Positions 23,760 to 41,468 of a stretch of 64,000 nucleotides of DNA are shown piece after piece. The notes below the pieces were generated by a model. That model made no database searches and was not told where the DNA came from. It saw only the letters and a list, made by a program, of their open reading frames with translations. A program made the translations under genes and the position numbers. Source of the DNA: Candidatus Krumholzibacteriota bacterium. Lineage in GTDB: Bacteria; Krumholzibacteriota; Krumholzibacteriia; LZORAL124-64-63. The stretch is from NCBI GenBank assembly GCA_024277025.1, contig JAJRWA010000048.1, positions 29,653 to 93,652 of the forward strand, given 5' to 3'. Within the stretch, counting starts at the first letter, position 1, and every line of letters starts with the position of its first letter.

Positions 23760-25565
23760 CTACTGCACCATCACCTGGAATTTCAGCGAAAAACTGCTGG
23801 GCCCGGAAATATCCCGGCCCAGAAAAATACCGCGGGGGCGGATGCGGATGTGCGTGACCGCTGGATCGTACCCCAGGGCGTCGGGCACCGGTCGGTAGCT
23901 GAAACTGGCGCCGCCGTCATTGGAGAAGGCGATCAGGCGCCGGCGCAGCCGCAGGCCACTGCTGACCGGGCCGTCGACGAACAGGACCGCCCCGGTCGTC
24001 GAGCCGGGGAATGTGTTCACGTACAGAGCCGTGTTGGCGGGCACCGGATTGATGACTTCGACCGTGTTGCGGTCGACCGTGCCGGCCCTGATGTTGCTGG
24101 TCGTCACCGTGCAAACCAGGGTCGCGCCGGGAATCGCCTTGGGGTTGGCCGCGCCGTTGATCGGGTCGGCCACCGTTTCGGTGAAACTGGCCGAGGTGAG
24201 TTCGGCGTCGGGCAGCACGACATTCAGGGCCATGGTGCCGGTATCATTGGCCGGATTGAAGTCGAAGGAACCGCCGCTGACGCTGACCAGCAGGTCGGGT
24301 GATCCGACGGCGCCGGGATCCGGCTGCACGGTGAATTCCAGGGGCAGGCTCTGGCCGGCCAGGACCGGCCCCGGTCGGCTCCAGGTGATGACAGGCAGGG
24401 CGCCGGTGTTCACGGTCCAGCCGCTGCCGGTCGTGCCGGTGTAGGCCAGGCCGGCGGGCAGGGTCACCGTCAGGCTGACCGGCAGGGGCTCGTCGCTGGG
24501 GCCGTTGTTGACCAGGGTCAGCGCGATCCGGCCGGGTTCCAATACGAACAGGGGATCGTCCGGGGCCGCGGTGAAGGCCAGGTCGGTCAGGGGCGTGTTG
24601 GTCACCGAAATGACTTCGGCCGACAGCAGCACCAGGTCCCGCCCCGAGCGGTAGACGGTCGTGGCCTGGATGTCGCCGGCGTTCAGGTAGGGCGTGACGT
24701 CGTAGATATCCAGATCCACGCCCCACTGGTCGCTCAGCCCGGCGGTGTTGACCGTGGAATTGAACTGGTTGTTGACCGGATTCAGGGGGTCCAGCAGGGC
24801 GTTGCCGTTGAAGGTCAGCCCCTCGGTATAGCCATTGAGGCTGCCGCTGTTCTCGGCGTCGCCTTCCCAGGTCAGGTGCCCCACCTTGCCGTTGATGTCG
24901 CTGGCGGCGATCTCGAAATCGGTGGCCGTCACGGCGATCTGGCCGCCGCGGTAGTACTGGAAGCCGTCGAAGATGTTGACCACGCGGTTCGATTCGTCCG
25001 GATGCTCGTAGACCACGATCAGCGACCAGCCGGCCAGCACCGCCTGCACGTTGCAGTGGGGCCAGGCCGTGTTGACGTCCAGATTGCCGAAAGTGTAGAG
25101 TCCGTTGCCCTTGGCTGCGACCAGGGCGGTCACGTCGGCCATGCCGCTGAAGAAATCGTAACGGCTGAAGCCCAGGCTGAAGACCTCGGTGAACTGGCGA
25201 TCGGCCGTGACCGCGGCCCCGTCGAGGGTCACGTCCCAGTCCGGCGTGCGTTGGGTCGACAGGAACTGATCGGACCAGGAGCCGGCCCAGTACAAGTAGG
25301 CGGCCCGGACCGTGGCGCCGGCCGGCAGGTCGGTCAAGGCCGCGGTGTCGTAGTTGTCCACGGCACAGGCGTCGGTCAGGTTCGAGCCGCGGCGCAGCGA
25401 GCCGGCGGTGCCGACGAAGTTCACGTGGCCGGCGTGGGTGGCGTGCAGGCTGATCGGCGTGCCGGCGCGGACGCTGCCGGGCAGCAGCAGCCAGCCGCTG
25501 AGCAGCAGCGGGATCAGGCCACGAAGGCGCCGGTAGTCCGGCTGATGTCTAGCGCAGCATCTCAT
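23760..25565 (-). CDS. secreted DUF11-domain surface protein with N-terminal MshQ/LamG-like beta-sandwich region
   Basis: Signal peptide. The N-terminal motif DACAVDNYDTAALTDLPAGATVRAAYLYWAGSW is reminiscent of MshQ/LamG-type proteins (from memory, low certainty). DUF11 repeat TLVNNGPSDEPLPVSLTVTLPAGLAY. The C-terminal about 60 aa (NPVPANTALYVN...AVTHIRIRP...FQVMVQ) are shared with three downstream paralogs. The gene overlaps the giant gene's stop by 17 nt. Confidence 0.5.
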   Translation of the reverse strand: MRCCARHQPDYRRLRGLIPLLLSGWLLLPGSVRAGTPISLHATHAGHVNFVGTAGSLRRGSNLTDACAVDNYDTAALTDLPAGATVRAAYLYWAGSWSDQFLSTQRTPDWDVTLDGAAVTADRQFTEVFSLGFSRYDFFSGMADVTALVAAKGNGLYTFGNLDVNTAWPHCNVQAVLAGWSLIVVYEHPDESNRVVNIFDGFQYYRGGQIAVTATDFEIAASDINGKVGHLTWEGDAENSGSLNGYTEGLTFNGNALLDPLNPVNNQFNSTVNTAGLSDQWGVDLDIYDVTPYLNAGDIQATTVYRSGRDLVLLSAEVISVTNTPLTDLAFTAAPDDPLFVLEPGRIALTLVNNGPSDEPLPVSLTVTLPAGLAYTGTTGSGWTVNTGALPVITWSRPGPVLAGQSLPLEFTVQPDPGAVGSPDLLVSVSGGSFDFNPANDTGTMALNVVLPDAELTSASFTETVADPINGAANPKAIPGATLVCTVTTSNIRAGTVDRNTVEVINPVPANTALYVNTFPGSTTGAVLFVDGPVSSGLRLRRRLIAFSNDGGASFSYRPVPDALGYDPAVTHIRIRPRGIFLGRDISGPSSFSLKFQVMVQ

Positions 25566-28500
25566 GGGTCGTTTCCTGGTTGAGCCGGACCCGGAACCGC
25601 AGATACGGTCCCTGGGCCGTGTAGTCCACCGCCGAGAAATCGCGGTCGCGATAACCGGTGAAGTTGTAGCCGAGACTGAGCCAGATATCCTCGAGCAGTT
25701 TGTAGCCGCCGCTCAGTCCGGCGCTGTAGTCGACGATGCCCGTGCGCCAGGCGTGCCGCCCGGCGGCGCGGGCGCCGATATCCCAGTGGCTGCCCAGGAA
25801 GTGACGCCACTCCAGGCCCAGCTGGTCGGTCGTGCTTTCGTAACGGCGGCCGGCGATCGTGTCGCGGCCATAGCGCACTCCGATCAGGGTGGAAAGCTGG
25901 TCCCGCTCGCCGAACATGCGCAGCAGGTTCAGGTTGTTCACCACGCGCCAGCTGGACAGGGCCGTCAGGTCGCCGGTCTGGTCCTCGGCCCGCCACGACA
26001 GGCGGTGCAGAATCGTCCATGGGTTATCATCCGGCCGCCACGACAGGCCGACGCTCACATCGGACAGATAGTGGTGCCCGGCCAGGCGGTAGTCCGTGCG
26101 CACCAGTCGCAAGCTGGCCAGCAGGCCGGTCTGCGTGCCTGGTTCGACGTGCACGCCGCCGCTCAGGCCCCATTTTTCGGACTCGGTGCTGGTGCGGTAT
26201 TCCAGGCGCTGGTCCACCAGCCACAGGCCGCCGCGGTAGGTGAAGCCGAAGGTGCCGGCGGTGAAGTCGCTGTCGATCGTCGGTGCGGCAACAGTCGAGT
26301 CTGACGGTGCGCCGCTGCTGCGGCCGTGGTCCAGTCCGCCGTCCAGATACCAGTGGTCGTTAAGGCGCAGGCTCTGCTTCAGGCCCAGATTGGCAAAGAC
26401 GCGGCGGTCGCTTTCGCGGCTGCGCCGCTCGGCCGAAGAAACCAGCCGCGCCCCGTGCCAGGGCACCGATTCGACGCCCAACCGGGTGCGGTGAGTGGCC
26501 GGCCCGCCGCCATCGACCAGTTCCTGGGCCAGAAACAGCTTCTGGTTGCGCACGACTTCGTACTCCAGGGCGGCTGTCGTGCGGGTCGGGAAGTCGGCAA
26601 TGTCATCCTGGCCGGCGATGGCCTGCTCGCGCCCCAGCCGGATGCGGCCGCGGCCCTCGAGCACTTTCACCGAGGCGTCGGCTGTCAATTGGCGGGCTTG
26701 CTGCAAGGTACCGTCGCTCTGCTCGTCGTTGGCTGCGCGCAGGCCCAGCCCGGCGGTGAACACACGGCTGTTGTGGTTCACCTTCATCTCGCCGAACTGG
26801 CGCTCGGCGGTGCTGACCAGATCGCGCTGGGCAAACACGGTGGCGTCCAGCCGCCAGGCTTCGTGGGGCTGCCAACGGGCGTCGGCGCCGTATTTGCGTG
26901 CACCCGACTCGCTGGCGTTCTGGTGGCCGAGGCCGAATCCGGCCTGTTGGTCGCGGTAGTACAGCCGGCCGATCAATGGCCCGGCGCGCTGGCTGAGTTC
27001 GCCGAACCAGGCATCCCGTCGGCCGGTGCCGCGAATATCGCTGCCGGCATACTCGGCCTTCAAGCGCAGCGACTGAGTCAAGTCCCAGCGGGTGTCCACA
27101 CCGGCCAGAACATCGGCCTGGCCACCCTGGGTGCCTTCCCGGATGCCGGTCACGCCGACCTCGACCGGGCCGGCGCCGGGTCGCCAGGAGCCGCGCCCGC
27201 CGACGGTGACTTCGGCGCTGCTGGCGGTCTCGGTCTCGTACTCGGCAATGATCCAGATCGGGTTGAAATTCTCGTCCTGGCTGGGGATCGGTTCCTTGAA
27301 GAACAGGGTGCCGTCCAGGTCGTCCAGGGTGTAGTCGACCGAGCGGGTCAGGTGCCGCTCGCTGATAATGATCTCGCTGCGATAGCGGTCCCGCACCTGC
27401 AGGATAATCTTCTCGGACTGGGGGATCAGCCGGCCCGCGGTCAGGCGGTACAGCCCAGAGGTGCCGTCGCCCCGGATCTCGTCCCGCCGGAAATTCTGCC
27501 GGTTCTCGCTGGCAAAGACGTCGAACCCCAGCTGCGCGCCTCGCCGACTGCTGCGCAGACCGGTCAGCGCCCGGTTGTAGCGCCCCAGTTCGGTCACCGT
27601 CAGGCCCGAGTTGAAATCGCCGTACAGGGCGTAGAACTGAGCCCGCTCGAGCCGGATGTACAGGTGGTCACTGGTCGGCGCGTCGTGCTTCTGGACCACC
27701 GCGTCGCCGTACACCGTGTAGTACGCGTCGGGGTCCACCACGCCGAACAGGCCCGGCACCGGCCGCCGTTCCGGGTCGGTGCTGTCGTAGGCCAAAGTCA
27801 GCAGCCACTTGCCTTTCAGGCGGCCCTTGGCAAAGAAGGCCAGGCGCCCGTCGGCATAGAAATCCTCGTTCCGGTCGGCAGCCGCCAGCTGTTCAAGATT
27901 GCCGCTGACCGTGTTGTAGCCCACGGTCCCGGACACGACCCCGGCCAGGATCCAGTCACGGGCCGCGGGCTGCAGCCAGGCCCGCAGTTCCTCTTCATGG
28001 TCGAGCAACCCCAGGTTGAGCACCGCTTCGCCCGAACTCGTGGTCGGAGCCAGGGTCAGCAGGGCCACGCCGTCGGGCCCGATGGTGTAGGTGGGGATCT
28101 TCTCCTGCAGCTCTGTGATGGTCTCGCGCTGGGCCTGGCCCTTCTCGCGCCAGGCTTCGTGCGGGGGCGCCACGGTGAACTTGCCGACCACCTCGCGGCG
28201 CGCCGGATAGCCCATCGAGTCGGTCAGGCGCACCGCAATGACGGGCTTCGTCTTGCCGTCGGCCACCAGCCGGGATCGTTCGGGCACCAGCTGGACAAAG
28301 ACCGGCGGACCGGAGTAGTGGATCCTGCGCTCCAGGTGGCGGACCAGCCTGCCGCGGGTATCGACGATGTCCACGGCCAGCAGGTTGTCGCCGTCGGTGA
28401 GGTCCAGTCCGGTCCAGGTGCTGACGGCGATCCGGCCGTCCGGCCCGACGATCCGGCCCGCGAAATTCAGGCGCCCGGCGGCCTTGCCGTTCAGGAACAG

Positions 28501-31389
28501 GCGCAGGCTGTCGCTGCCGGCGTGCTGCACCGCGAGCTTGATGGACGGCAGATGGGGCAGGTGTCCGTGCGGCGGCCAGAGGATGCGCTCACCGGCGCTG
28601 GCGCTGGCCAGCCAGGCCTCGTCATAGCTCGGCATCGTGGCCGCGGGCTGGACGGTGCCACCGGCATCCGGCCAGGCTTCGCCCGGCCGGAAACCCGTGA
28701 CCGGCCGCCGGGCCTGCTCGTGATCGTGCAACGCCTGGTCCGGCAGCCGGTGCACCACTTTCCGGGTCCACACCTGCAGGGTCACCCGCCGGTTGGCGGC
28801 CCGCCCCGCTGCGGTGCGGTTGTCGGCCACCGGTTCCCTGGCGCCCAGGCCGTACATGGCCAGCTGGGCCTCACTCAGGTGCAGCTGCCGGGAAATGTAG
28901 TTGCCGACCGCCTCGGCCCGGGCCAGCGAAAGAGCGTGGTTGTCCGTGTACACCGGATGGGCGCCGGGCCGGATGCGCTGGCTGTCCGTGTGCCCGATGA
29001 CCTTGACCGCCGTGATCTCCAGGTTCGCCAGACCGGCCAGCAGGGTGTCGATCTCCGCCAGATCCGCCGGTCCCAGCTCGGCACTCAAGCTGGCAAAGCG
29101 CGGCCGCAGGACCATTTCCGGCTGTTCCTGGCGCAATACCTCGGGCACCAGATTGATCGCGGTGCGCACGACTGCGGACCGCAGGTTGCGCTCGGTCGGG
29201 GTGTCGCACACCAGCAGGGTCTTTACCGCCAGGTCAGCGCGGTGCAGCGGTGGGACGACCGTGGCGCCATATTCGATCGTGAGAGCCTGATCGGCCGGCA
29301 AGTCACCCAGCCGGTAGACCAGGGTGCCGTCGCCGACCACCGGGTCCGGCACCGGCTGGCCGCCCAGACGCGAAGAACCGGGCGTGTAGGCAATCCCCGC
29401 GGGCAGGACCACCGTCAGGCGCAGGTTGCGCAGGGGCACCAGATCCGCGTCGATCCGGACCTGGCCCGTGACCGTCGCACCTTGCAGGGCGGTGTCCACG
29501 GCCAGCCCGAGCGTGCCGGCCACCGGCGGCACCCGCTGCAGCCGGAAATCACTGCGCCAGACCGTGCCGCCCTGCAGGTCGACCAGATGGGACCAAGGGT
29601 GGGCGCTGTACAGCGTGTCACCGCTGCAGTCGCCCGGCACGTAGTCGGGCGGCAGGCTTTCGCGGTCCAGTTGCACGACGTGGGCGCCGGGCGCGACGCC
29701 CGCGATATGGTAGCGCCCCTGGGCGTCCGTCACGGCGAAGGCGCCGCTCTCGAGATAAATGCGCACGCCGGCGATGCCGGTGCCCGAATCGGCTTCACAA
29801 TCGAAGCCCAGGACCCGACCGAGCAGGGTGTTGCTTGCGCCGAACAGATCGCGCCGCACGTTGACCAGCGCGCTGGCCTCGTTGGAGGTGACGGCGGCCC
29901 AGCGGGCGGTCGCCCGGTTGACCGCGTCGCCGGCCGGCGCGCCCGGCACCACGGCCGCCACGTAGCGAAAGGTCACGGTCGCGCCCGCGGCCAGCTCGGC
30001 GTGGGCGAAGGTGAGGGTGCGGCCATCGGGCGTGATGACGGGATCGCCCACCGGTTGGCTGTCCAGCAGCGTCGAACCGGCTTCGTAGCGAAAGCCGAGC
30101 GGCAGCTTGTCGGTCACCGTCAGGTTCGACGCGTCGTTGTCGGTCGTGTTCTGGACGCGGATTTCGTAGGCGAGAAAGTCGCCGATGGCCACACTGGCCC
30201 GCCCGGCCGTCTTGGTCACGAAGAGGTCGGTGTCGACCCGGTCGACCGGCAGGTCCAGCAGGAGCGGCTGGTCCGGCATGGCGAACGGTTCACCGCGGGA
30301 GCCGGGTGTCAGCAAAGCGTAGGGGCCGCCGGCGACCGACTGCAGCTGCGCGTCGGTCAGGCGCGACGGCGCGCGGTAGCCCGGCGGCACGTCCAGCTCA
30401 AGCCGGTACTGGCCCGCCTGTACGTGCGGGAAACGGAAACCGCCGGGGCCAAATTCATAGATTTGGCCGCCCGTGTCGCTGACCGGCCGGCCGGTCGTGA
30501 CCGTCGCCGGAAAGGCGGCGCTGCCGTCGACACCCAGCACGACGGCCGGCAGCCCGGTGCTGTTGTCGATGAGGCGAACCGTGACACCGTCGAGGGCCTC
30601 GCCGGTGCGGGAATCGAATACGCGGCCCACCGGATCGAAACGAGCGGTGGCCTGGGACTGGTCGGCCGGATCCCGGACGTCGGCGTAGACCAGACTGACA
30701 GTCTGGTCCTGGCCCACGCTCAGGCTGCCGTCCTTGGCCTGGGCCACAGCGCCGGTGGTCTGAATGAAGCCGAGAAATTCACCGGTGTCCGGCCCGGTCT
30801 CGTACAACCTGAGCAATTCACGATCGCCCAGGCTGTCGTTGCGAATGGTTAACAGGATCGTGTCCCGGCTCACGGCATCCCGGTTCTGATCCGCATCGAC
30901 CAGGTGCAGAAAAACGGGATCGCCCTGGGCGAAGAGGGTGGTCGAAACCAGCGGGACCGGCTGCGAGATATTGATCGGCGCCCCGCCGACGGGGACTGGC
31001 CCGGGCAGGGTCCGGAAAGGACCGCCGGCCTCGCCGCTGACGCTGTATTCGGTGCTGACCACGGGTACGGCGAGGGCTGTCCGCAGGCCGGGCTCGTAAC
31101 GCATGAAACCCGCTTCGCTGCCGGAACGCGCCGGCACGACGACCAGATTGACGGCATTGCTCAACCGGTTGAGCCCGCTGCGCGAGCCGGCACCGTAGGT
31201 GGCGCTGGCGATGTTCGTGATGATCGTGCCCGGCGGCTGCTGGGCGCTGGCCGGCGTGGGAGTGCCGGAGTGGAAAAAGATCAGCGGCACCGCAACCAGG
31301 AAACACCGCCGCCACACATGCGGAATCACGGCTCTGAAAAGAGCCGCGATTCCGCAGGAGGCAGTGCGTTTGGTGCCGTTGCGCAACAT
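25549..31389 (-). CDS. giant (1946 aa) outer-membrane-associated protein: DUF11 and carboxypeptidase-regulatory-like domains, internal OmpA-like peptidoglycan-binding domain, probable C-terminal beta-barrel
   Basis: The N-terminus GTIITNIASATYGAG resembles the small DUF11 paralogs. CarbopepD_reg-like folds at about aa 255-335 and 525-575 (GVRIYLESGAFAVTDAQGRYHIAGVAPG). DUF11 at about aa 390-500 (LAYEIRVQNTTDNDASNLTVTDKLPLGFRY). OmpA C-like domain at about aa 760-875, roughly nt 28764-29109 (VIGHTDSQ...NHALSLARAEAV...NRRVTLQV). A roughly 1050-aa C-terminal region of alternating amphipathic strands ends ...PYLRFRVRL. The antisense 1508-aa ORF has low complexity and was rejected. Confidence 0.6.
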   Translation of the reverse strand: MLRNGTKRTASCGIAALFRAVIPHVWRRCFLVAVPLIFFHSGTPTPASAQQPPGTIITNIASATYGAGSRSGLNRLSNAVNLVVVPARSGSEAGFMRYEPGLRTALAVPVVSTEYSVSGEAGGPFRTLPGPVPVGGAPINISQPVPLVSTTLFAQGDPVFLHLVDADQNRDAVSRDTILLTIRNDSLGDRELLRLYETGPDTGEFLGFIQTTGAVAQAKDGSLSVGQDQTVSLVYADVRDPADQSQATARFDPVGRVFDSRTGEALDGVTVRLIDNSTGLPAVVLGVDGSAAFPATVTTGRPVSDTGGQIYEFGPGGFRFPHVQAGQYRLELDVPPGYRAPSRLTDAQLQSVAGGPYALLTPGSRGEPFAMPDQPLLLDLPVDRVDTDLFVTKTAGRASVAIGDFLAYEIRVQNTTDNDASNLTVTDKLPLGFRYEAGSTLLDSQPVGDPVITPDGRTLTFAHAELAAGATVTFRYVAAVVPGAPAGDAVNRATARWAAVTSNEASALVNVRRDLFGASNTLLGRVLGFDCEADSGTGIAGVRIYLESGAFAVTDAQGRYHIAGVAPGAHVVQLDRESLPPDYVPGDCSGDTLYSAHPWSHLVDLQGGTVWRSDFRLQRVPPVAGTLGLAVDTALQGATVTGQVRIDADLVPLRNLRLTVVLPAGIAYTPGSSRLGGQPVPDPVVGDGTLVYRLGDLPADQALTIEYGATVVPPLHRADLAVKTLLVCDTPTERNLRSAVVRTAINLVPEVLRQEQPEMVLRPRFASLSAELGPADLAEIDTLLAGLANLEITAVKVIGHTDSQRIRPGAHPVYTDNHALSLARAEAVGNYISRQLHLSEAQLAMYGLGAREPVADNRTAAGRAANRRVTLQVWTRKVVHRLPDQALHDHEQARRPVTGFRPGEAWPDAGGTVQPAATMPSYDEAWLASASAGERILWPPHGHLPHLPSIKLAVQHAGSDSLRLFLNGKAAGRLNFAGRIVGPDGRIAVSTWTGLDLTDGDNLLAVDIVDTRGRLVRHLERRIHYSGPPVFVQLVPERSRLVADGKTKPVIAVRLTDSMGYPARREVVGKFTVAPPHEAWREKGQAQRETITELQEKIPTYTIGPDGVALLTLAPTTSSGEAVLNLGLLDHEEELRAWLQPAARDWILAGVVSGTVGYNTVSGNLEQLAAADRNEDFYADGRLAFFAKGRLKGKWLLTLAYDSTDPERRPVPGLFGVVDPDAYYTVYGDAVVQKHDAPTSDHLYIRLERAQFYALYGDFNSGLTVTELGRYNRALTGLRSSRRGAQLGFDVFASENRQNFRRDEIRGDGTSGLYRLTAGRLIPQSEKIILQVRDRYRSEIIISERHLTRSVDYTLDDLDGTLFFKEPIPSQDENFNPIWIIAEYETETASSAEVTVGGRGSWRPGAGPVEVGVTGIREGTQGGQADVLAGVDTRWDLTQSLRLKAEYAGSDIRGTGRRDAWFGELSQRAGPLIGRLYYRDQQAGFGLGHQNASESGARKYGADARWQPHEAWRLDATVFAQRDLVSTAERQFGEMKVNHNSRVFTAGLGLRAANDEQSDGTLQQARQLTADASVKVLEGRGRIRLGREQAIAGQDDIADFPTRTTAALEYEVVRNQKLFLAQELVDGGGPATHRTRLGVESVPWHGARLVSSAERRSRESDRRVFANLGLKQSLRLNDHWYLDGGLDHGRSSGAPSDSTVAAPTIDSDFTAGTFGFTYRGGLWLVDQRLEYRTSTESEKWGLSGGVHVEPGTQTGLLASLRLVRTDYRLAGHHYLSDVSVGLSWRPDDNPWTILHRLSWRAEDQTGDLTALSSWRVVNNLNLLRMFGERDQLSTLIGVRYGRDTIAGRRYESTTDQLGLEWRHFLGSHWDIGARAAGRHAWRTGIVDYSAGLSGGYKLLEDIWLSLGYNFTGYRDRDFSAVDYTAQGPYLRFRVRLNQETTHEMLR

Positions 31390-31397
31390 GTCCGGGG

Positions 31398-32456
31398 CTA
31401 CTGGATGATCACCTGGAATGTGCTCAGGGCAGCGCCTGCGGCGGCAATGCTCGGAAACAGGACCCGCATGTGGGTGACCGTCGGGTCGGTGCCGTCACCG
31501 CTGTCGACCGGCGTGTAGGCCCAGGTCGTTCCGCCGTCGTTGCTGTATTCCAGCGTGCCGGCCGGGGCCACCGAGTGGCTGCCGACGACGAAGCTGGTGT
31601 TGGCCGGCACCGGGTCGACGACCACGATATTGTCGGCGCTCGAGCCGCCGTTGTTGGTCAGATTGACCGTGTAGTTGACGTTGGCGCCGGGGATGTTCTT
31701 GGGCCGGGTCACGCCGTTGATCGGGTCGCTCATGACCGCGTGGGTCTTGACGACCTGCAGGTCGGCCGAGGCCACCTCGTAGGTCGAACGGCTGCTGTGG
31801 GCGCCGTCGTTGGCACCGTCGGCGCTGCCGGCGGCGTCGGCGAACACGATCTGGACCACCGACGGATCGTCGGCGCTGGCCGCGTCGTCCGCGGCGATGA
31901 CCGCGCCCTGGGCGGCGGGGGCGCCGCCATTGCTGGTGCGGGCCAGCAGGTCGTAGTTGGCCAGTTCGGCGTTGGCCGCGGTCAGGGGAATATCACTGAC
32001 GATGAACACGTTCTGCGTGGCGTCAATGGCCAGCTCGTCGATGAACGTCGCGTTGTCGGTGGCCGGCTCGTAGATGCCGTTGCCGTTGACGTCGACGAAG
32101 ACGTTCACGTTGGTCGCGTCGAAGTCGTCCCCGGCATCGGCCACGGCGGTCAGGGCGTAGTCCTGGACCGTGTTGCCGCTGTTGGTGACGGCATAGCTCA
32201 GCACGCGGGCGAGCATGCCGGGCACGACCACGATGTTGGCGGCGTCCAGGGTGGCGACCGAGACATCAACGCGGTTGTCGACCAGAAAGGTCGCCACGTT
32301 GCTGTTGATCGTGGCCTGGGGCAGTCCGCCGACCTGATAGTCGACCGTGGCGCTGTTGTTGACCGTGGTGCCCGAGGGCGTGCCGCCGGCCAGGGCGCTG
32401 CCGGCCAGGGCCAGCAGAAGTACGGCCGCAGCCAGAGTAGTGATCCTTCGTTTCAT
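31398..32456 (-). CDS. secreted DUF11 (conserved repeat domain)-family protein, paralog A
   Basis: Signal peptide MKRRITTLAAAVLLLALAGSALA. N-terminal motif GTPSGTTVNNSATVDY. A Ca-binding-like stretch DxNGNGIYEP. DUF11 repeat NYTVNLTNNGGSSADNIVVVDPVPANTSFVVGS. C-terminal TVTHMRVLF...FQVIIQ. Confidence 0.55.
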   Translation of the reverse strand: MKRRITTLAAAVLLLALAGSALAGGTPSGTTVNNSATVDYQVGGLPQATINSNVATFLVDNRVDVSVATLDAANIVVVPGMLARVLSYAVTNSGNTVQDYALTAVADAGDDFDATNVNVFVDVNGNGIYEPATDNATFIDELAIDATQNVFIVSDIPLTAANAELANYDLLARTSNGGAPAAQGAVIAADDAASADDPSVVQIVFADAAGSADGANDGAHSSRSTYEVASADLQVVKTHAVMSDPINGVTRPKNIPGANVNYTVNLTNNGGSSADNIVVVDPVPANTSFVVGSHSVAPAGTLEYSNDGGTTWAYTPVDSGDGTDPTVTHMRVLFPSIAAAGAALSTFQVIIQ

Positions 32457-32480
32457 CTGTTCTACCTCCTGTGGAAGTTG

Positions 32481-32969
32481 CTAGAGCAACCGGGTGGTGT
32501 AGCTCACCTGACCGGTTTCGCCCGGCGCCAGTGATCTGTGGAATTGCCAACGGATATGGGTGCAGTCCTGGGGCAGGGCCCGACGCGACTGACCTGCACT
32601 GTCAGTCACCGTCAGGTCGGACAACGGGCCGAACACATGGCCGCCGTCCACCGAGTAGAGGGTTTCCAGCCCGGCCGGATTGGCGGCCGCGCGACGGAAT
32701 TCCATGTGCTCGGGAATCGGATTCGTGATGAAAATATCGTCGGCCGGCTCGCTGCCCTGGTTGTCGTAGACGAGGGTGTAGATGACCTCGTCACCGGGCA
32801 CGACCGTTTCGGCCGGCACCCGCTGCACGGACCGCGTGCCGTCCGGTTGTTCCTGGACGACTTCGACCTCGGCCAGCGCGCGCAGAGCCACGCCGGCCAC
32901 GGCCGTTTGGGCCGCCGCCAGCGAAACGCCGAGCAGACTGATGAAAATCAGCGTCCGGCGCAGGTTCAT
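32481..32969 (-). CDS. small secreted DUF11-like protein, paralog B
   Basis: The ORF (TTG-initiated to 33008 in the track) was trimmed to ATG 32969, MNLRRTLIFISLLGVSLAAAQTA. DUF11-like VPGDEVIYTLVYDNQGSEPADDIFITNPIPEHMEF. C-terminal CTHIRWQF...VSYTTRLL. Confidence 0.45.
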   Translation of the reverse strand: MNLRRTLIFISLLGVSLAAAQTAVAGVALRALAEVEVVQEQPDGTRSVQRVPAETVVPGDEVIYTLVYDNQGSEPADDIFITNPIPEHMEFRRAAANPAGLETLYSVDGGHVFGPLSDLTVTDSAGQSRRALPQDCTHIRWQFHRSLAPGETGQVSYTTRLL

Positions 32970-33000
32970 AGGGATAGTTGTCACTTGCTTACCTCCTGGG

Positions 33001-33996
33001 TTATTCAAGGGTCACCTGGAAAGAGATCCGTTGTGTCGGCGTGTCGGCTGTCATGTCTCCGAGGGCAATGGTGACCGCGCCCTCCAATTGGTCGGCCACG
33101 TCGCCGGCATCGCTGTCGGCGGCGTCGCTCAGGGGAGTGTCGTTGAGCAGAAGCGTGCCCGGGCGATAGACCGTGCCCGGGGGAATGGGGTCGGTCACGC
33201 GCACGTCGTGGGCGATGCCGCTGCCGCTGACCGTGACGGTGATCGTGTAGGTGATGAGGCCGGTCTCGTCGACCTCGTTGCCGGGCAGGGTGCGGCCCGC
33301 GGTGTCGGTCACCACGGCGGTCTTGAAGAGGTTGACCTGGACTGCGGCCACTTCCAGGGTGCCGACGGCGTCGGCGAACCCGCCGGCCAGCCCGATGATC
33401 GCGTCGGTGCCACCGTCGCCCTGGCCGTAGACCACGGTGCCCGGCACGCCGTAGCCCTCCGCGGAACCGACGGCCAGTTTCAGGTCGCCGCGATCGCCGG
33501 TGGCCAGAGCCGGCGGCACGATGCCCACCAGGAAGACCGTCAGCGGCTGGTCCGCGGCCAGTTCGGGATCGTTCACACCCTCGATGTAGATTTCATCCTG
33601 CAGGGGGTCGTAGTAGCCGTTGCCGTTGGTGTCCAGATGGATCGCGGGGTTCAGCGGGTCGAAGTCGTCGCCGGCCAGGGCGTTGATGGCCGTCAGCAGA
33701 AACGTCTCCTGGCCATTGCCCGTGTTCTGCAGGCGAAAGGTCAGCGCCGCGCCGGTGTCGCCAGCGTACACCGGCACGGCGGCCGCATCCTGCCAGGCCA
33801 GCGTGAAGTCCAGGACTTCATTGACCGGCAGGGAGAGCAAGTTGCTCGCCGTGGTCATATTCTGGCCGGCCTGCGTGTACGAGACCATCGCCTGGCTTTG
33901 GATCAGCGTACCGGCGGGCGTGCCGACTGCTGCAGCCAGGGATGTTTGCAGGCACGCCATGAGGGTCAAGGCCAACAGCCTTGCCGGGCGTCTCAT
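33001..33996 (-). CDS. secreted DUF11-family protein, paralog C
   Basis: Signal peptide MRRPARLLALTLMACLQTSLAAAVG. N-terminal GTPAGTLIQSQAMVSY, DDFDPLNPAIHLDTNGNGYYDP, and DUF11 repeat GLITYTITVTVSGSGIAHDVRVTDPIPPGTVYRPG. Clearly paralogous to 31398..32456. Ends ISFQVTLE. Confidence 0.55.
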   Translation of the reverse strand: MRRPARLLALTLMACLQTSLAAAVGTPAGTLIQSQAMVSYTQAGQNMTTASNLLSLPVNEVLDFTLAWQDAAAVPVYAGDTGAALTFRLQNTGNGQETFLLTAINALAGDDFDPLNPAIHLDTNGNGYYDPLQDEIYIEGVNDPELAADQPLTVFLVGIVPPALATGDRGDLKLAVGSAEGYGVPGTVVYGQGDGGTDAIIGLAGGFADAVGTLEVAAVQVNLFKTAVVTDTAGRTLPGNEVDETGLITYTITVTVSGSGIAHDVRVTDPIPPGTVYRPGTLLLNDTPLSDAADSDAGDVADQLEGAVTIALGDMTADTPTQRISFQVTLE

Positions 33997-34859: not shown

Positions 34860-35367
34860 TTTGGCCGGCGCACTGAACCTGAAGACCGGAGTCCTGGTCC
34901 TGAGTGACAAGGGTTCCCGCGGCGAGCGCGAGGACGCCAGTGGCCCGGCCCTGCTGGACTTCCTGGCCGACCAGGGGGTGCCGGACGCCGAACTGGTCAT
35001 CCTGCCGGATGAGCGCCCGCTTATCGCCGAGTCCCTGGCGCGGTGGGCGGACCAGGAGGGTTTCGACCTGATCCTCACCTGCGGCGGCACCGGGGTTTCG
35101 CCCCGGGATGTCACCCCGGAAGCGACGCGCGACGTCATCACCACCGAGCTGCCGGGCTTCGGCGAACAGATGCGGGCGGTCAGCCTCACCAAGTCGCCCC
35201 ACGCCATCATCAGCCGGGCGACCGCCGGCATTCGCCGGCACACCCTGATCATCAACCTGCCGGGCAGTCCCCGGGCCGCGGTCGAAAATCTGGCCGCGGT
35301 CTGGCCGGCGGTGCCGCATGCGATAGCCAAGTTGCAGGGGGACGACGCGGACTGCGCCCAGGGTTAG
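34840..35367 (+). CDS. moaB: molybdopterin adenylyltransferase-like MoaB/MogA family protein
   Basis: LTCGGTGVSPRDVTPEA and GVLVLSDKGSRGEREDASG are typical of MogA/MoaB. The ATG at 34840 overlaps the moaC 3' end by 20 nt; alternative starts are GTG 34813 and TTG 34861. Confidence 0.75.
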   Translation: MATGRVDLAGALNLKTGVLVLSDKGSRGEREDASGPALLDFLADQGVPDAELVILPDERPLIAESLARWADQEGFDLILTCGGTGVSPRDVTPEATRDVITTELPGFGEQMRAVSLTKSPHAIISRATAGIRRHTLIINLPGSPRAAVENLAAVWPAVPHAIAKLQGDDADCAQG

Positions 35368-37184
35368 ACTTCAGCGGGTTGTTTGGTCCACCACAGGATC
35401 GTGTCGCGCAGTTGTTTGGCCTTCAGCGGCTTGGTCAGGAAGTCGTCCATGTTTGCGGCCAGGCACTTCTCCTTGTAGCCCGCCAGGGCGTGGGCCGTCA
35501 GGGCCACGATGGGAATGCGCCGGCCGGCATCCTCGAGCGCCCGAATCCTCGCGGTCGCGGCGAAACCGTCCATGACCGGCATCTGCACGTCCATCAGGAT
35601 CAGATCAAAACTGTTTTTCTCCCACAGGGCAACGCCCTCTTCGCCGTTCTCGGCCCATTTGATGTCGGCGCCGGCCTTCTGCAGGATGTGGGTGGCCAAC
35701 TTGGCGTTGACCAGGTTGTCTTCCACCAGCAGGATCCGGATTCCGCTCAGTTTCCGGTCATCGCCGTCGGCTGCCGGCGCGACGTCGGGCGTGGCGGCGA
35801 CCGGTGCCTGGCAGGAGGCCAGCGGCAAGGTGAAGGAGAACGTGCTGCCCTCGCCCTCGGTGCTCGCCAGTTTGATCTGGCCGTCCATCATGTTGATGAT
35901 GCGCGCGGAAATGGTCAGGCCCAGACCCGTGCCGCCGAACTGCCGTGTCGTGGTGCCGTCGGCCTGGCGGAAGGCTTCGAAAATGTGGGCCTGGTTGGCG
36001 GCCGGGATGCCGATGCCCGTGTCCTGCACGGCGAACCGGATCCGCGGCGAGTCGTTGCCCCGGTCCACGACGCTCACACTGAGCGTGACAGTGCCGTGTT
36101 CGGTGAATTTCAGGGCGTTGCCGACCAGGTTGGTCAGGACCTGCCAGAGGCGCAGGCTGTCCCCGAGCACCGCTTCGGGCAGGCCTGCCGCCAGCCTGAC
36201 TTCGAGTTTGTTGTGGCGGTCATCCGCCGCCGTCTGCAGCGGCTTGACGACGTTTTCCACCAGGTCGAGCAGGCGGAACGGCGCGGGATCCAGCTCGAAC
36301 TTGCCCGATTCGATCTTGGAGAAATCGAGAATCTAATTGATGACCCGCAGCAGGGTTTCACCCGAAATGCGGATGTCGTTCATGTACTCCCGCTGCGCCG
36401 GGTCCAGTTCGGTGTCGAGCATCAGGTTGGTCAGGCCGATGACCCCGTTCATCGGTGTGCGGATCTCATGGCTCATGTTGGCCAGGAACTCGCTCTTGGC
36501 GCGATTGGCCGCGACCACTTCGTCACGGGCGGCCTCCAGGTCATCCGCCCGCTGCCGCAAGTCTTCCTCGCGTTCGAGTCTCGTCCAGAACTCGCGATGG
36601 AAGTAGGCGCCCAGGGTGTGGACCTGGACCGTGTAGAACATCAGAAGCCCGGCCAGGGAGATCGCCCTGGTTTCGCCCGAGGCCAACAGCGTGATGATGT
36701 GCGGCAGCATGATCATGCCGACGAAGACGCGGAAGATCTTCATGCGGGGCGACAGGCTGCTGGTGGCGCTGGCCGCGATTCCGATACTGGTCATCACCAG
36801 GATGTAGTAGGACCAGCCCATACCGAAGTGGATCAGGACTCCGGCATTGCCCAGCCCCCAGACCAGGGCCGGAAACAGGGTGCCCAGGAAGAAGCGGTTC
36901 AGCCAGCGCCCGGGGTTCTTGTCGTAGCACGAGGCGAAGGATCGGGCCAACCGAATGCGCAAGAGCCCCGAGACCAGGTACAGGGCCGTCACACCCAACG
37001 ATGGCAACAGGGCTTCCGACTTGAGATCGGTCATCAGCATGACGATGATTGTCAGGGGCACATAGCTGAGGGCGACGCGCAGCGAACGGCGCGCCAGTTC
37101 CTGGTCGGCAGGACGGTTCAGCCGCAGGTTGTGGGCGGAATCACCTTGCTCGGTGGTCTGCAGGATTTGGGAATGTTCCATCAC
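35364..37184 (-). pseudogene. hybrid sensor histidine kinase (membrane sensor-HisKA-HATPase-REC) interrupted by an in-frame TAG; possible pseudogene or sequencing error
   Basis: The upstream half (36333..37184) has TM helices and an H-box, [18 protein letters not shown]...LLRVIN, then TAG (plus-strand cta at 36333-36335). Translation continues in frame as ILDFSKIESGKFEL. The second half (35364..36260 in the track) encodes HATPase_c (VGNALKFT...GGTGLGLTIS) and a receiver domain (ILLVEDNLVNAKL...DLILMDVQMPVMDG...TKPL). The stop replaces the conserved Asp of the NDILDFSKIE motif. Confidence 0.55.
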
Positions 37185-38654: not shown

Positions 38655-41468
38655 TCACTTGGTCAGGACAACTCTTTGTGTGGCCTGGTCGCCGCGGCCG
38701 GCGACCAGCCGCACGAGATAGACCCCGCTGGCGGCCGTGCGGCCCCGGTCATCGCGCCCGTCCCACTGCAGTTGTCCGCGCGTGTCAGTGGTCGGTCCGC
38801 GGTAGAGCTGCCGGATCCGCCGCCCCCGCAGATCGTACACCGTCACCGCCAGAGGCCCGGGCCGCGCGATCGCATAGGAGATATTGACGACCGGATTGAA
38901 GGGATTCGGCCAGGCCGCCAACCGGGTCGTCACTGCGGTCGGCGGGCCGTCGGGTACCGGCGCCGGCGCGAGGCCGCGACCGAGCGTGATGCCGTCGATG
39001 AAGAAGCCGGCGCCGCTCACTCCGCTGTCCGATCCGAACGCCAGGCGGAAGCGGAACGAGCCCCCGGTCAGCCCGCTGATGTCAAAGACAGTGCCCGTCC
39101 AATGGTCGGAAGTCCCGGACCAGCCGGCCTGCTGGCCGAGGCCGCCCAGGAACAGATCACTGTAACCCTCGACGGGTGCCAGCAGGGTGGACGTGCTGTC
39201 GGTGCCGACAGTCAGATTCACGCCGTCGAAGTTGGCTTCCGTGGCGCTGAAGTAGTGGAAACTCAGGTAGTACGGCCCCGCGGACACGCCGCTCAGATCG
39301 TACAGGGGGCTGCTCAGGGTGTCGGCCTGGTCGTCGGCATAGCCCAGACCATCCATCCCGATCCCCCAGCACTGGCTGCCGGTGAAGGCGTCGGTCACGC
39401 CGGCCGGCGGGACCCCGTGGGTCCACAGACCCTGGCCCGCGGCGAAACCGCCGTCATCGGCGCCGAAATCCTCGCCGACCGGAGCGAGAACCGGGCTGAG
39501 AGTGACTGTGCCTGTGGCCCCGCCGGTCGAGAAGTCGAGCACCCGGGCGCCGAAGCCCGGCACGCCGTGGACCAGCACCTGGTCGCTCAGGCCCACCGGC
39601 ACCTGGGGCAGGACAAAAGAGCCGTCGGCGCCGCTGATCGCCGCCGGCACCGGCACGGTCAGCGGCTCGATGCGCGCGCCGGACAAAGGCAGCCCGTTGC
39701 CGTAGACCACGCCCGCGATATCCACCCGCGCCACCGGGGTCAGGACCATATCCGCGACAACCGGGCTGCCCAGGGCAATGACCGCCGCCGTGCTGTCCGG
39801 TTCGTAGCCAAAGAGGGAAAACCCGATTTCCGTGGGGCCGACCAGCAGGGGCAGACGCCAACTGCCGGCAGCATCGGTCAGGGTGGTTGCGCCGCCGCCG
39901 CTGACGGCCACCAGCACCCCGGCCACGGGCAGGCCCGTGGCCTGGTCCGTCACCACCCCCGACACCTCGCCAATGCCGGTGTCGGCCAGGGCGTAGGCGG
40001 CGACCAGATCGGGCCGGGTGCCGATCAGCTGCGGTCCGTTGACCGGGGTGCCGGTCTGGCGCAACAGATCCCGGGCCAGGCGGGCGTCCAGACTGAAGCC
40101 GTGCCGGGCGCGGACCATGCCCGCCAGGCTGACCACCGCGCCGGTCACCACGGGGGTGGCGCTGCTGGTTCCGTTGAACTGGGCGGTGTACCACTGCTGC
40201 TCGGGAAACTCCGGCGAACCCTGCAGGTCGCCATAGGCCAGAGTGGTCACATCGAAGCCCCAGCCGTTGAGGTCCACCCGCTGGCCGTGGTTGGTGAAGT
40301 AGGCCGGATCGAGCGTGACCCCATCGGTGGCCCCGACCAGGATGGCGCCGCTGTGGCGGACGGCCGGATCGAACAGCCCCTGATAGATGGCGGCGTCCAG
40401 ATCGACCGCGCCGTTGCCGGCCGCTTCGAGCACCATGATCCCCTGCCGGGTGACCGCCTCGATGGCCGCGAAGTTGTCCTGCCAGAATTCCATGGGCACG
40501 TAGCCCTCCTGGCCGACTCCGGTGGCCTCGGGCCCGGGCGCGTGCAGCTCGATGACAATGACATCACCGGGTCCGAGCAGGGCGCCTGCGGCCAGGATCG
40601 CTTCGCTGGTGGACTGGTCACCGATGGACGAACTGCCCACGGCACAGGCCGGGGCGATGCCGGTCACGCCCAACCCGTTGTCCTGGCCCCGGATCACGCC
40701 GAGCACCGCCGTGCCATGCCAGCGCCAACTGCCGCTGTCGATGTGGGTGCCGAGATCAGCCAGGGGCGCCGGCAGGTCCTCGTGGCTCCACAGCCAGGCA
40801 CCTTCGACATCGATCACCTGCACGCCGGCCCCCAGGGCGCCGGCCTGGCCGCGCATGCTCAAGGCGCCGATGCCCGCGGGCGCATCGGCCAGATACCCCT
40901 GCAGGTGCTCAAACGAGGCCGAAGCGGTATCGGCGGCTGCCGAGGGGAACCCGGGACCGGTTCGGCCGAAGTCCAGCACCGCCGGTGTGGCCACCGGCTC
41001 CAACCAGGCCAAATCGATGGCGGGGTCGTCCTGCAGTCGGGCGACCAGCTTGTTCAGTACCTGACGGTCGCGTGTTCCGGCCTCGAACTGGGCGTAGCGG
41101 GCCAGCGGCAAGTAGCGGGCGCGGTCCTCGGCTTGGGCCAGGCCGCGCGCGGCGGTCGGCATTCTGGCGGTCAGCCGGGCGCCCGGGACCAGATTCGTGA
41201 CCAGGTTCAGCACCCGCCGGCCATTGCCGGCAGCCTTGGCCGGGGCGGTAACTGACACGCCATCCGGCCCCATGTGCAGCCCCGCCGTGGGGGCAAAACG
41301 GATGACCAGCCGGCCGCTGGGTGCGGTCGTCTGCAAACGTGGTGAACCACCGGGACTTGCCGGATCCGGCGCCGCAACCAGCCTGTTGGGGCCGCCAAAA
41401 ACGCTCGATATCACAAAAACGGCCAAAAAATAACGAAAAACGCCGGTCCAGGTGATTTTCCTGTTCAT
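38655..41468 (-). CDS. secreted S8-family subtilisin-like serine peptidase with Cpd-reg-like domains and C-terminal T9SS sorting domain
   Basis: Catalytic triad contexts DSGSWRWHGTAVLGV and GTSSATPVVTGA. Repeated beta-sandwich GVVTDQATGLPVAGVLVAV. C-terminal WPNPFNPVVNISYAI...VTVYDLRGRRI...SGVYLVRLV. Confidence 0.8.
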   Translation of the reverse strand: MNRKITWTGVFRYFLAVFVISSVFGGPNRLVAAPDPASPGGSPRLQTTAPSGRLVIRFAPTAGLHMGPDGVSVTAPAKAAGNGRRVLNLVTNLVPGARLTARMPTAARGLAQAEDRARYLPLARYAQFEAGTRDRQVLNKLVARLQDDPAIDLAWLEPVATPAVLDFGRTGPGFPSAAADTASASFEHLQGYLADAPAGIGALSMRGQAGALGAGVQVIDVEGAWLWSHEDLPAPLADLGTHIDSGSWRWHGTAVLGVIRGQDNGLGVTGIAPACAVGSSSIGDQSTSEAILAAGALLGPGDVIVIELHAPGPEATGVGQEGYVPMEFWQDNFAAIEAVTRQGIMVLEAAGNGAVDLDAAIYQGLFDPAVRHSGAILVGATDGVTLDPAYFTNHGQRVDLNGWGFDVTTLAYGDLQGSPEFPEQQWYTAQFNGTSSATPVVTGAVVSLAGMVRARHGFSLDARLARDLLRQTGTPVNGPQLIGTRPDLVAAYALADTGIGEVSGVVTDQATGLPVAGVLVAVSGGGATTLTDAAGSWRLPLLVGPTEIGFSLFGYEPDSTAAVIALGSPVVADMVLTPVARVDIAGVVYGNGLPLSGARIEPLTVPVPAAISGADGSFVLPQVPVGLSDQVLVHGVPGFGARVLDFSTGGATGTVTLSPVLAPVGEDFGADDGGFAAGQGLWTHGVPPAGVTDAFTGSQCWGIGMDGLGYADDQADTLSSPLYDLSGVSAGPYYLSFHYFSATEANFDGVNLTVGTDSTSTLLAPVEGYSDLFLGGLGQQAGWSGTSDHWTGTVFDISGLTGGSFRFRLAFGSDSGVSGAGFFIDGITLGRGLAPAPVPDGPPTAVTTRLAAWPNPFNPVVNISYAIARPGPLAVTVYDLRGRRIRQLYRGPTTDTRGQLQWDGRDDRGRTAASGVYLVRLVAGRGDQATQRVVLTK

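Follow-up and report, generated by a model that had tools for sequence, protein, structure and literature searches.

Why should secreted proteins that have otherwise diverged begin with one shared motif and end with another? The question is raised by a group of genes in a 64,000-nucleotide stretch of a contig from a Candidatus Krumholzibacteriota bacterium (JAJRWA010000048.1, positions 29,653 to 93,652 of the forward strand; assembly GCA_024277025.1), which is referred to below as the window and in which all positions are given. A preliminary description of this DNA drew attention to terminal motifs common to a set of secreted DUF11 paralogs, and suggested that these motifs either allow subunits to interlock through donor strands or act as a sorting signal. 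The segment concerned spans three (A, B and C) of five co-directional minus-strand open reading frames (ORFs), A to E, which are packed closely or overlap. Comparison of the five products with one another and with their homologs predicts that the terminal motifs derive from a single DUF11 domain of the isopeptide-forming kind, which has been split into two parts. The proposal advanced here, with a probability of roughly 0.6, is that the A-E subunits plug into one another head-to-tail by donor-strand complementation, that a Lys-Asn isopeptide bond locks the junction, and that the resulting fibre is held by the giant barrel protein D.

The terminal motifs and the CLIPPER domain

Every string quoted in the preliminary description is present in the sequences of A-E. 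The mature proteins A, C and D begin with GTPAGTLIQSQAMVSY, GTPSGTTVNNSATVDY and PPGTIITNIASATYG, respectively, and the C-terminal ends read ..VTHMRVLF..FQVIIQ in C, ..VTHIRIRP..FQVMVQ in E, ..CTHIRWQF..YTTRLL in B and ..ISFQVTLE in A. Six-frame translation of the window yields exactly three matches to the N-terminal pattern G[TD]x(1-2)[IVL]x[NS]xAx[VA]x[YW], at the mature N-termini of A, C and D, against a mean of 0.01 matches in 100 codon-shuffled windows, so that the motif claimed for these three proteins is borne out. The comparison with homologs that the preliminary description had called for points the same way for the orthologs. In a set of 118 full-length homologs with 36-82% identity to C, residues T26, N34, A36, K237 and D281 are invariant in all 118; the signal peptide is followed directly by the N-terminal motif, which begins at residue 22-34, in 114; and the C-terminus lies exactly 5 residues past F347 in 110. 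The C-terminal motif is general only as regards its F-x-V-x-[IVL] end, since T-H-[IM]-R is confined to part of the C family, B and E, and is an internal strand of the C-terminal domain rather than a terminal motif. The acidic loop attributed to both paralogs is also present, as GDDFD...D.NGNGxY(D/E)P at residue 110 of A and C, and its positions D113, D122, Y129 and D134 are at least 85% conserved among the homologs of C.

The relation between the two ends becomes apparent when they are compared with complete domains of the same family. DUF11, recently renamed CLIPPER, is a CnaA-like immunoglobulin-like (Ig-like) domain with an intrachain isopeptide bond that joins a Lys of the first strand to an Asn of the last strand, catalysed by an Asp; in the crystal structure 9IFR, which guided the assignment of the triad in A-E, these residues are K715, D748 and N806, and some DUF11 domains do not have the bond (PMC12617251). 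Matches to DUF11 or TIGR01451 models are found in all five proteins when Pfam and NCBIfam are taken together. Pfam DUF11 (PF01345; cut-off 24.6 bits) scores 35.5 bits in C, 26.6 in B, 51.4 in D and 27.5 in E, and falls below the cut-off in A (22.1); TIGR01451 (cut-off 24 bits) scores above it in A (34.6), B (32.0), C (40.0) and D (45.1), and E is without an NCBIfam match. In A, B, C and E, however, the C-terminal domain matches the DUF11 profile only from about position 8 to 81 of 114, stopping at strand F. This truncated "acceptor" domain retains the Lys (K237 in C, K225 in A) and the Asp (D281 in C, D269 in A), and lacks the last strand.

A candidate for the missing strand resides at the other end of the protein. 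The mature N-terminal motif GT.sGT.[IV].N.A.V.Y resembles the last strand of CLIPPER, and in C the Lys, Asp and Asn are not within one contiguous domain, the Asn-bearing "donor" strand being located about 200 residues upstream, at the N-terminus; a full triad is obtained only by bringing both ends together. When the N-terminal strand of C is appended to its C-terminal domain, the Pfam DUF11 match grows from 8-81 to 8-112 of 114. Global alignment of this permuted construct with the complete CLIPPER domain of D scores 99.5 with the strand and 59.5 without it, shuffled-strand constructs score 71.1 +/- 6.3 (none of 300 reaching 99.5), and the K, D and N columns of the two domains coincide. The longer profile match, the higher alignment score and the coinciding triad columns are the reasons for reading the two terminal motifs as halves of one domain; the isopeptide triad, predicted from these alignments, is an addition to the preliminary description, which had missed it. 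Neither the permuted domain nor the family profile retrieved any relative when the PDB was searched by sequence.

In C the donor strand occupies positions 32331..32384 (minus strand; residues 25-42, GTPSGTTVNNSATVDYQV), with N34 (32355-32357) as the proposed isopeptide Asn. It is followed by a middle beta-sandwich domain (31770..32330, minus strand), delimited by AlphaFold2 (AF2) secondary structure, which holds the acidic loop GDDFD...DVNGNGIYEP, and then by the acceptor domain (31401..31769, minus strand), a CLIPPER domain without its last strand that contains K237 (31746-31748) and D281 (31614-31616) and ends in FQVIIQ. In A the donor strand (33877..33927, minus strand; residues 24-40, VGTPAGTLIQSQAMVSY) has Ser34 rather than Asn at the isopeptide position, and the acceptor (33004..33360, minus strand), again a CLIPPER domain cut short at strand F (ISFQVTLE), contains K225 and D269. 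Just upstream of the donor strand of A, a lipobox-like LMAC lies in the signal peptide (33952-33963; residues 12-15); it is probably not a lipoprotein signal, because it is not conserved in the ortholog at locus L001.

Donor strands and acceptor domains in five genes and across genomes

The two halves of the domain are distributed unequally among the five genes, each of which starts with a signal peptide. Gene A (33001..33996, minus strand; 331 aa) encodes both a donor strand and an acceptor domain and is the proposed adaptor subunit. Gene C (31398..32456, minus strand; 352 aa), with a donor strand, the middle domain and an acceptor domain, is the proposed main shaft subunit. Gene B (32481..33008, minus strand; 175 aa) consists of a single acceptor-type domain without a donor strand, in which the catalytic Asp is replaced (N96) and the Lys is absent, and is proposed to be a non-covalent cap or chaperone. 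Gene E (23760..25565, minus strand; 601 aa) is the proposed tip: its DUF3344 head is followed by a DUF11 domain that is complete and by an acceptor domain at the C-terminal end, again without a donor strand; this acceptor (23763..24203, minus strand) ends in FQVMVQ, and in the window the Lys is changed to Ser and the Asp to Asn (N506). Gene D (25549..31389, minus strand; 1946 aa) encodes a giant donor-only protein, for which a role as anchor and export pore is proposed. A is a paralog of C (30% identity, E=1e-23), and the C-terminal domain is common to C and E (E=5e-16). A and B overlap by 8 nt (33001-33008), as do D and E by 17 nt (25549-25565), and only 24 nt separate B from C and 8 nt separate C from D; these overlaps and short gaps suggest that A-E form a single translationally coupled operon. 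A scan for promoters and terminators gave no informative result.

The architecture of D is unrelated to that of the smaller proteins apart from its beginning. Directly after the signal peptide is a donor strand (31192..31236, minus strand; residues 52-66, PPGTIITNIASATYG) with N59 in the Asn position. Its only recognised CLIPPER domain (29899..30228, minus strand; K393, D427, N491) is complete and contiguous, with a K-D-N spacing of 34/64 as compared with 33/58 in 9IFR (PMC12617251), and since this domain has its own last strand, it has no need of the N-terminal one. BLAST of the N-terminus of D against C found no significant similarity, the best local alignment (E=0.96) being between the last strand of the internal domain of D and the N-strand of C. 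Besides DUF11, Pfam recognises CarboxypepD_reg and OmpA domains in D, as it does DUF3344 in E; the OmpA-like peptidoglycan-binding domain (28771..29097, minus strand; E=4.6e-12) is absent from some orthologs, such as that of L001. In an AF2 model of the C-terminal region (predicted local distance difference test, pLDDT, 72.7), Ig-like domains precede about 32 long antiparallel strands, which from the modelled secondary structure would make up a large beta-barrel at 25588..27261 (minus strand; residues ~1377-1934). The best Foldseek matches of the barrel are Deinococcus SlpA, LptD, TonB-dependent receptors and SprA, at template modelling (TM) scores of about 0.15-0.27. The modelled strands and these matches to large barrels are the grounds on which D is taken to be probably a giant protein of the outer membrane, in which a long Ig-like arm, tipped at its N-terminus by the donor strand, leads to the barrel. 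For the last ~1070 residues of D (25588-28752), more than 1000 homologous proteins are found, about 40% identical to it; no Pfam domain is annotated in that region in any of them, and the barrel of D matches no known sequence family either. In the same model, about 100 residues (~1145-1245) form a segment of low confidence, and in NCBIfam the Kustd1514 anammox S-layer glycoprotein is matched weakly (E=6e-12, far under the cut-off) by residues 150-259 of D (about 30613-30942).

The same set of genes is found elsewhere. A scan of GTDB genomes with a 43-sequence alignment returned 80 loci, to which exact look-ups added three, and the order A-B-C-D, with E at either end, is seen in about 80 loci from more than 10 phyla. 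The hosts include Krumholzibacteriota, Fibrobacterota, Zixibacteria, Eisenbacteria, Campylobacterales, Gamma- and Betaproteobacteria such as Steroidobacteraceae, Burkholderiales and Thiohalomonas, as well as Myxococcota, Nitrospirota, Desulfobacterota and Spirochaetota. The phyla that bear the cassette are mostly uncultured, and one locus is in the cultured Marinobacterium profundum, where it lies at about 29.2-41.2 kb of NZ_BCNS01000142.1 in strain PAMC 27536. Krumholzibacteriota loci are closest to the window (76-78% identity), the flanking genes vary from locus to locus, and D comes next after C in most loci whose contig reaches beyond C.

Scoring of donor strands and acceptor domains across these loci with hidden Markov models yields a pattern that is specific to each gene. 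In C, the donor Asn is present in 69 of 69 sequences and the acceptor Lys and Asp are likewise present in 69 of 69. In A, the Asp is found in 65 of 65 acceptor domains and the Lys in all that align, and the donor Asn in 41 sequences; in 16 others, including the window (S34), it is replaced by Ser, Thr, Cys, Ala or Gly, and all 16 of these orthologs retain the acceptor Lys and Asp. B has no donor strand in any of 78 sequences, its Asp position is occupied by Asn in 59, Ser in 7 and Asp in 11, and its Lys is not conserved. E also lacks a donor strand (24/24), and the Lys and Asp are kept in 19 of the 24, the window (S/N) being an exception. D has an N-terminal donor with Asn in most loci (26/43 by regular expression, more by eye) and no terminal open acceptor was detected in 41 of 43. 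The heads of E differ: those recorded by locus (L001, L012, L040, L042 and L050) include DUF3344, right-handed beta-helix/NosD, DUF2341, SdrD_B and DUF7933, and the head at L001 has no Pfam match at E<=0.001. It appears, then, that E heads are swapped as modules on one type of acceptor domain.

In one metagenomic protein (P0245, 696 aa), two C-like units are fused in frame, and the second has no signal peptide. At its junction (...RFSVTVN-ASQAPNT-SIANTGSVAY) the second donor strand begins 7 residues past the first strand F, which is the normal spacing of an F-G hairpin, and the protein resembles a transitional form linking split subunits to tandem-repeat adhesins. Giant DUF11 proteins are also matched by the C-family profile, each of them 20-50 times and by way of the acceptor portion of the profile.

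Pairing between chains and the alternatives

The suggestion that the proteins interlock through donor strands is both favoured and sharpened by the split domain and by the way in which donors and acceptors are distributed; that the halves pair between subunits is what we infer from these sequence patterns. In the proposed mechanism, all five proteins would be exported by the Sec system. The donor strand of one protein would then insert beside strands A and F of the open CLIPPER domain of another, and the Lys and Asn would react unaided by enzymes, assisted by the domain's own Asp, to form an isopeptide bond that locks the junction. The order from tip to base would be E (or B), A, C (one or many) and D, with D fixed to the outer membrane. 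E, with its variable head and acceptor only, would be the distal tip; A and C, which have both donor and acceptor, would constitute the shaft; and D, as a donor only, would end the chain by tying it covalently to the ~32-strand outer-membrane barrel and, in the window, would also contribute the OmpA-like peptidoglycan-binding domain. B, an acceptor without catalytic residues, could serve as a non-covalent cap or as a periplasmic holder of donor strands. Formation of the bond, the length of the polymer, the use of the D barrel for export and the function of B are all put forward in this conditional sense. Pfam and NCBIfam detected no family of sortases, ushers or PapD-like chaperones, either within the cassette or in the variable DNA around it (for sortase, the flanks of 3 other loci), and the absence of an encoded assembly enzyme is consistent with self-catalysed assembly.

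The most serious competitor is a reading in which each donor strand serves its own chain. A and C would then be circularly permuted CLIPPER proteins whose N-strand folds back, with the K237-N34 bond stapling a closed two-domain monomer, and the products of the operon, instead of joining into a chain, would be individual proteins of high stability at the surface or in the periplasm. This reading, although unlikely overall, accounts equally well for the invariance of N34, K237 and D281 within C, and it fits the very confident AF2 monomer of C, N-strand included (pLDDT 94.6, and ~97 for residues 31-40; predicted TM score 0.81). A Foldseek search with this model retrieved only generic tandem Ig matches (integrin legs, AgI/II and PrgB; TM ~0.3), which do not inform the docking of the N-strand. 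FimA, a genuine pilin, can fold as a self-complemented monomer as well as polymerise (PMC6615685), so that a confident monomer model of C is decisive neither way.

Several features of the other proteins favour pairing between chains and are left unexplained if the strands close their own domains. The first is the division into acceptor-only (E and B), dual (A and C) and donor-only (D) proteins, which follows the logic of a tip, a shaft and an anchor; in self-closing proteins, the open acceptors of E and B would have no donor, and yet E, devoid of an Asn strand of its own, generally retains the Lys and Asp. The second is the Asn-bearing donor strand of D, a protein whose own CLIPPER domain is already complete. 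The third is the group of 16 Asn-less A orthologs, in which retention of the acceptor Lys and Asp would be unexpected if the strand served its own chain. The fusion protein P0245 argues in the same direction by recreating the spacing of the F-G hairpin between two units. In addition, the sequence that follows the donor strand (…SN.A..LVD.R) matches the linker that leads from a complete CLIPPER domain to the next tandem domain, which favours an extended over a folded-back arrangement.

Other observations weigh against the head-to-tail fibre. The preliminary description had set burial of the motifs in a monomeric fold against interlocking, and the AF2 monomer of C does place the N-strand confidently; a closed monomer would look just like this model. 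In the window itself, A (S34) and E (S/N) lack bond-forming residues, so that not every junction here would be covalent. In D, the OmpA-like domain comes after the donor strand and before the barrel, and the chain could be periplasmic; the barrel model itself is of moderate confidence with low TM scores to known barrels. Support for a specific junction between A and E is suggestive only: E lacks the Lys and Asp only where A lacks the Asn (3/3), yet several Asn-less A proteins coexist with an E that bears both residues, and the association (Fisher p=0.07) comes from cases that all belong to one clade.

Within the fibre reading, some details are also compatible with more than one arrangement. 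Each operon has three donors (A, C and D) and three catalytic acceptors. The relaxed Asn position of A and the missing catalytic residues of B suggest that at least one junction would be non-covalent. The data fit a defined 1:1:1:1 D-C-A-E stalk and a long homopolymer of C equally well.

A simpler account would attribute the resemblance to shared ancestry, the termini being ordinary edge strands of paralogous Ig-like domains with no part in assembly or cross-linking. A, C and E are clear paralogs, and DUF11 domains are common as stalk modules, some of them without isopeptide bonds (PMC12617251). Ancestry of this kind is nevertheless an improbable explanation for the strict conservation of N34, K237 and D281 among sequences that are otherwise 36-82% identical, for systematic truncation at the same strand, with constant tail lengths, in four protein families, for a free C-terminus held to one position in 110 of 118 homologs, or for the recurrence of the same motif at the N-terminus of D, whose architecture is otherwise unrelated.

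The least probable reading, that the C-terminal motif is a possibly cleaved sorting or secretion signal (a type IX secretion system (T9SS) domain, a sortase or exosortase signal, or an outer-membrane beta-signal), was rejected because TIGR04183, LPXTG, PEP-CTERM and other sorting models do not match A-E, there is no hydrophobic or charged tail, and the C-terminal residues, which form strand F of an Ig-like domain in a confident model (pLDDT ~97), align with strand F of complete CLIPPER domains, even though the organism uses T9SS sorting, with TIGR04183 tails on two other proteins in the window, and the F-x-V-x-[IVL]-x end is superficially like a beta-signal.

Known fibres, significance and the surrounding DNA

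The principle of assembly proposed here is already known from other systems. The closest is BsaA of Clostridium perfringens, in which an N-terminal donor strand is locked by an N35-K74-E56 triad (PMC11580942). As in this member of the TasA family, a strand that follows the signal peptide would enter the sheet of a neighbour and form an Asn-Lys bond with an acidic catalyst and no sortase (PMC11580942), the triad proposed for C being N34/K237/D281. The folds differ, however, being CLIPPER/DUF11 in the cassette and TasA/camelysin in BsaA, so that the mechanism would be analogous without homology. BsaA also belongs to a Gram-positive host, depends on SipW and a type IV pilus for secretion, and consists of one type of subunit, with no barrel anchor and no division into tip, adaptor and anchor. 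No TasA or Peptidase_M73-type match was obtained by Pfam in A-E, and the cassette has no signal peptidase gene.

A looser match is provided by the threads of Sulfolobus acidocaldarius (Saci_0406), which combine donor-strand complementation with an isopeptide bond (PMC9715654). Shared with the cassette are the N-terminal donor strand, the proposed covalent bond between subunits and the lack of a sortase. In the threads, Asn57 of subunit n+2 is bonded to the alpha-amine at the N-terminal Asp24, and these archaeal proteins have no Pfam domain and no outer-membrane component (PMC9715654). The CLIPPER/DUF11 tandem-repeat fibrillar adhesins have the same domain family and the same Lys-Asp-Asn triad as the cassette (PMC12617251); their domains are contiguous and the bond lies within one chain, whereas the cassette has the domain split between the ends of a protein of ~350 aa, so that in the cassette an identical reaction would link distinct polypeptides. 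Covalently joined Ig-like subunits with tip, shaft and base roles, as proposed here, also recall the sortase-dependent pili of Gram-positive bacteria, but no LPXTG or hydrophobic tail is present at the C-termini of A-E, which end at strand F.

In chaperone-usher pili, each pilin lacks its last strand, which is supplied by the N-terminal extension of the next subunit through non-covalent junctions. The cassette resembles these pili (type 1 and P) in having a proposed tip with a head and an acceptor-only domain, in its predicted large outer-membrane barrel, and in its gene order of subunit, small protein, subunit, barrel and adhesin. It differs in that the predicted barrel of D has ~32 strands and is fused to a long Ig-like arm with a donor strand of its own, and in that B would accept strands rather than donate them; neither a PapD-like chaperone nor a PF00577 usher has a Pfam or NCBIfam match in A-E at E<=0.1, and B matches only DUF11-type models. 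The type V pili of Bacteroidota (FimA/Mfa) have a C-terminal donor strand, a lipoprotein precursor and an N-strand removed by a protease, unlike the cassette with its N-terminal donor, and no FimA or Mfa family match was found with Pfam. The cassette thus falls outside the chaperone-usher, sortase, TasA, type V and T9SS-cargo families, and the literature searched contains no description of it.

SpyTag/SpyCatcher is a man-made split of a CnaB isopeptide domain into a strand and a truncated domain; the cassette would be a natural split of a CnaA-like domain. Although the assembly principle has precedents in BsaA and the archaeal threads, the cassette itself is widespread and, in the literature searched, undescribed. 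Conceivably, at odds a little short of even, it represents an unrecognised class of surface fibre, a natural split "Tag/Catcher" that needs no chaperone, usher-family protein or sortase, uses a barrel as both pore and covalent anchor, and has up to three, maybe specific, pairs per operon, with A, C and D as donors and A, C and E as acceptors. Should the pairing between subunits be true, a covalent, enzyme-free route to fibres would be added to the pilus types of outer-membrane bacteria, and a role would be at hand for hundreds of small proteins annotated as "DUF11 domain-containing" and for the more than 1000 giant barrel proteins without an annotated domain in the barrel region. The cassette would also show how the stalk of a tandem-repeat adhesin can be broken up into self-ligating modules, and it could yield natural ligation pairs of the SpyTag/SpyCatcher type, possibly partner-specific.

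In the window, the cassette is bordered by unrelated genes, namely moaC/moaB at one end and a gene for a PepO-like peptidase at the other. The T9SS type A tails mentioned above (TIGR04183, cut-off 23 bits) belong to proteins of 937 aa (38655-41468, minus strand; 30.0 bits) and 762 aa (12542-14830, minus strand; 26.7 bits), from which use of type IX secretion by the organism is deduced; such secretion fits the Krumholzibacteriota/Fibrobacterota affinity of the operon. The 937-aa protein shows the same weak Kustd1514 match as D. Downstream of moaB (35364-37184, minus strand) are ORFs that resemble a hybrid histidine kinase/response regulator, with HATPase and receiver motifs in their translation.

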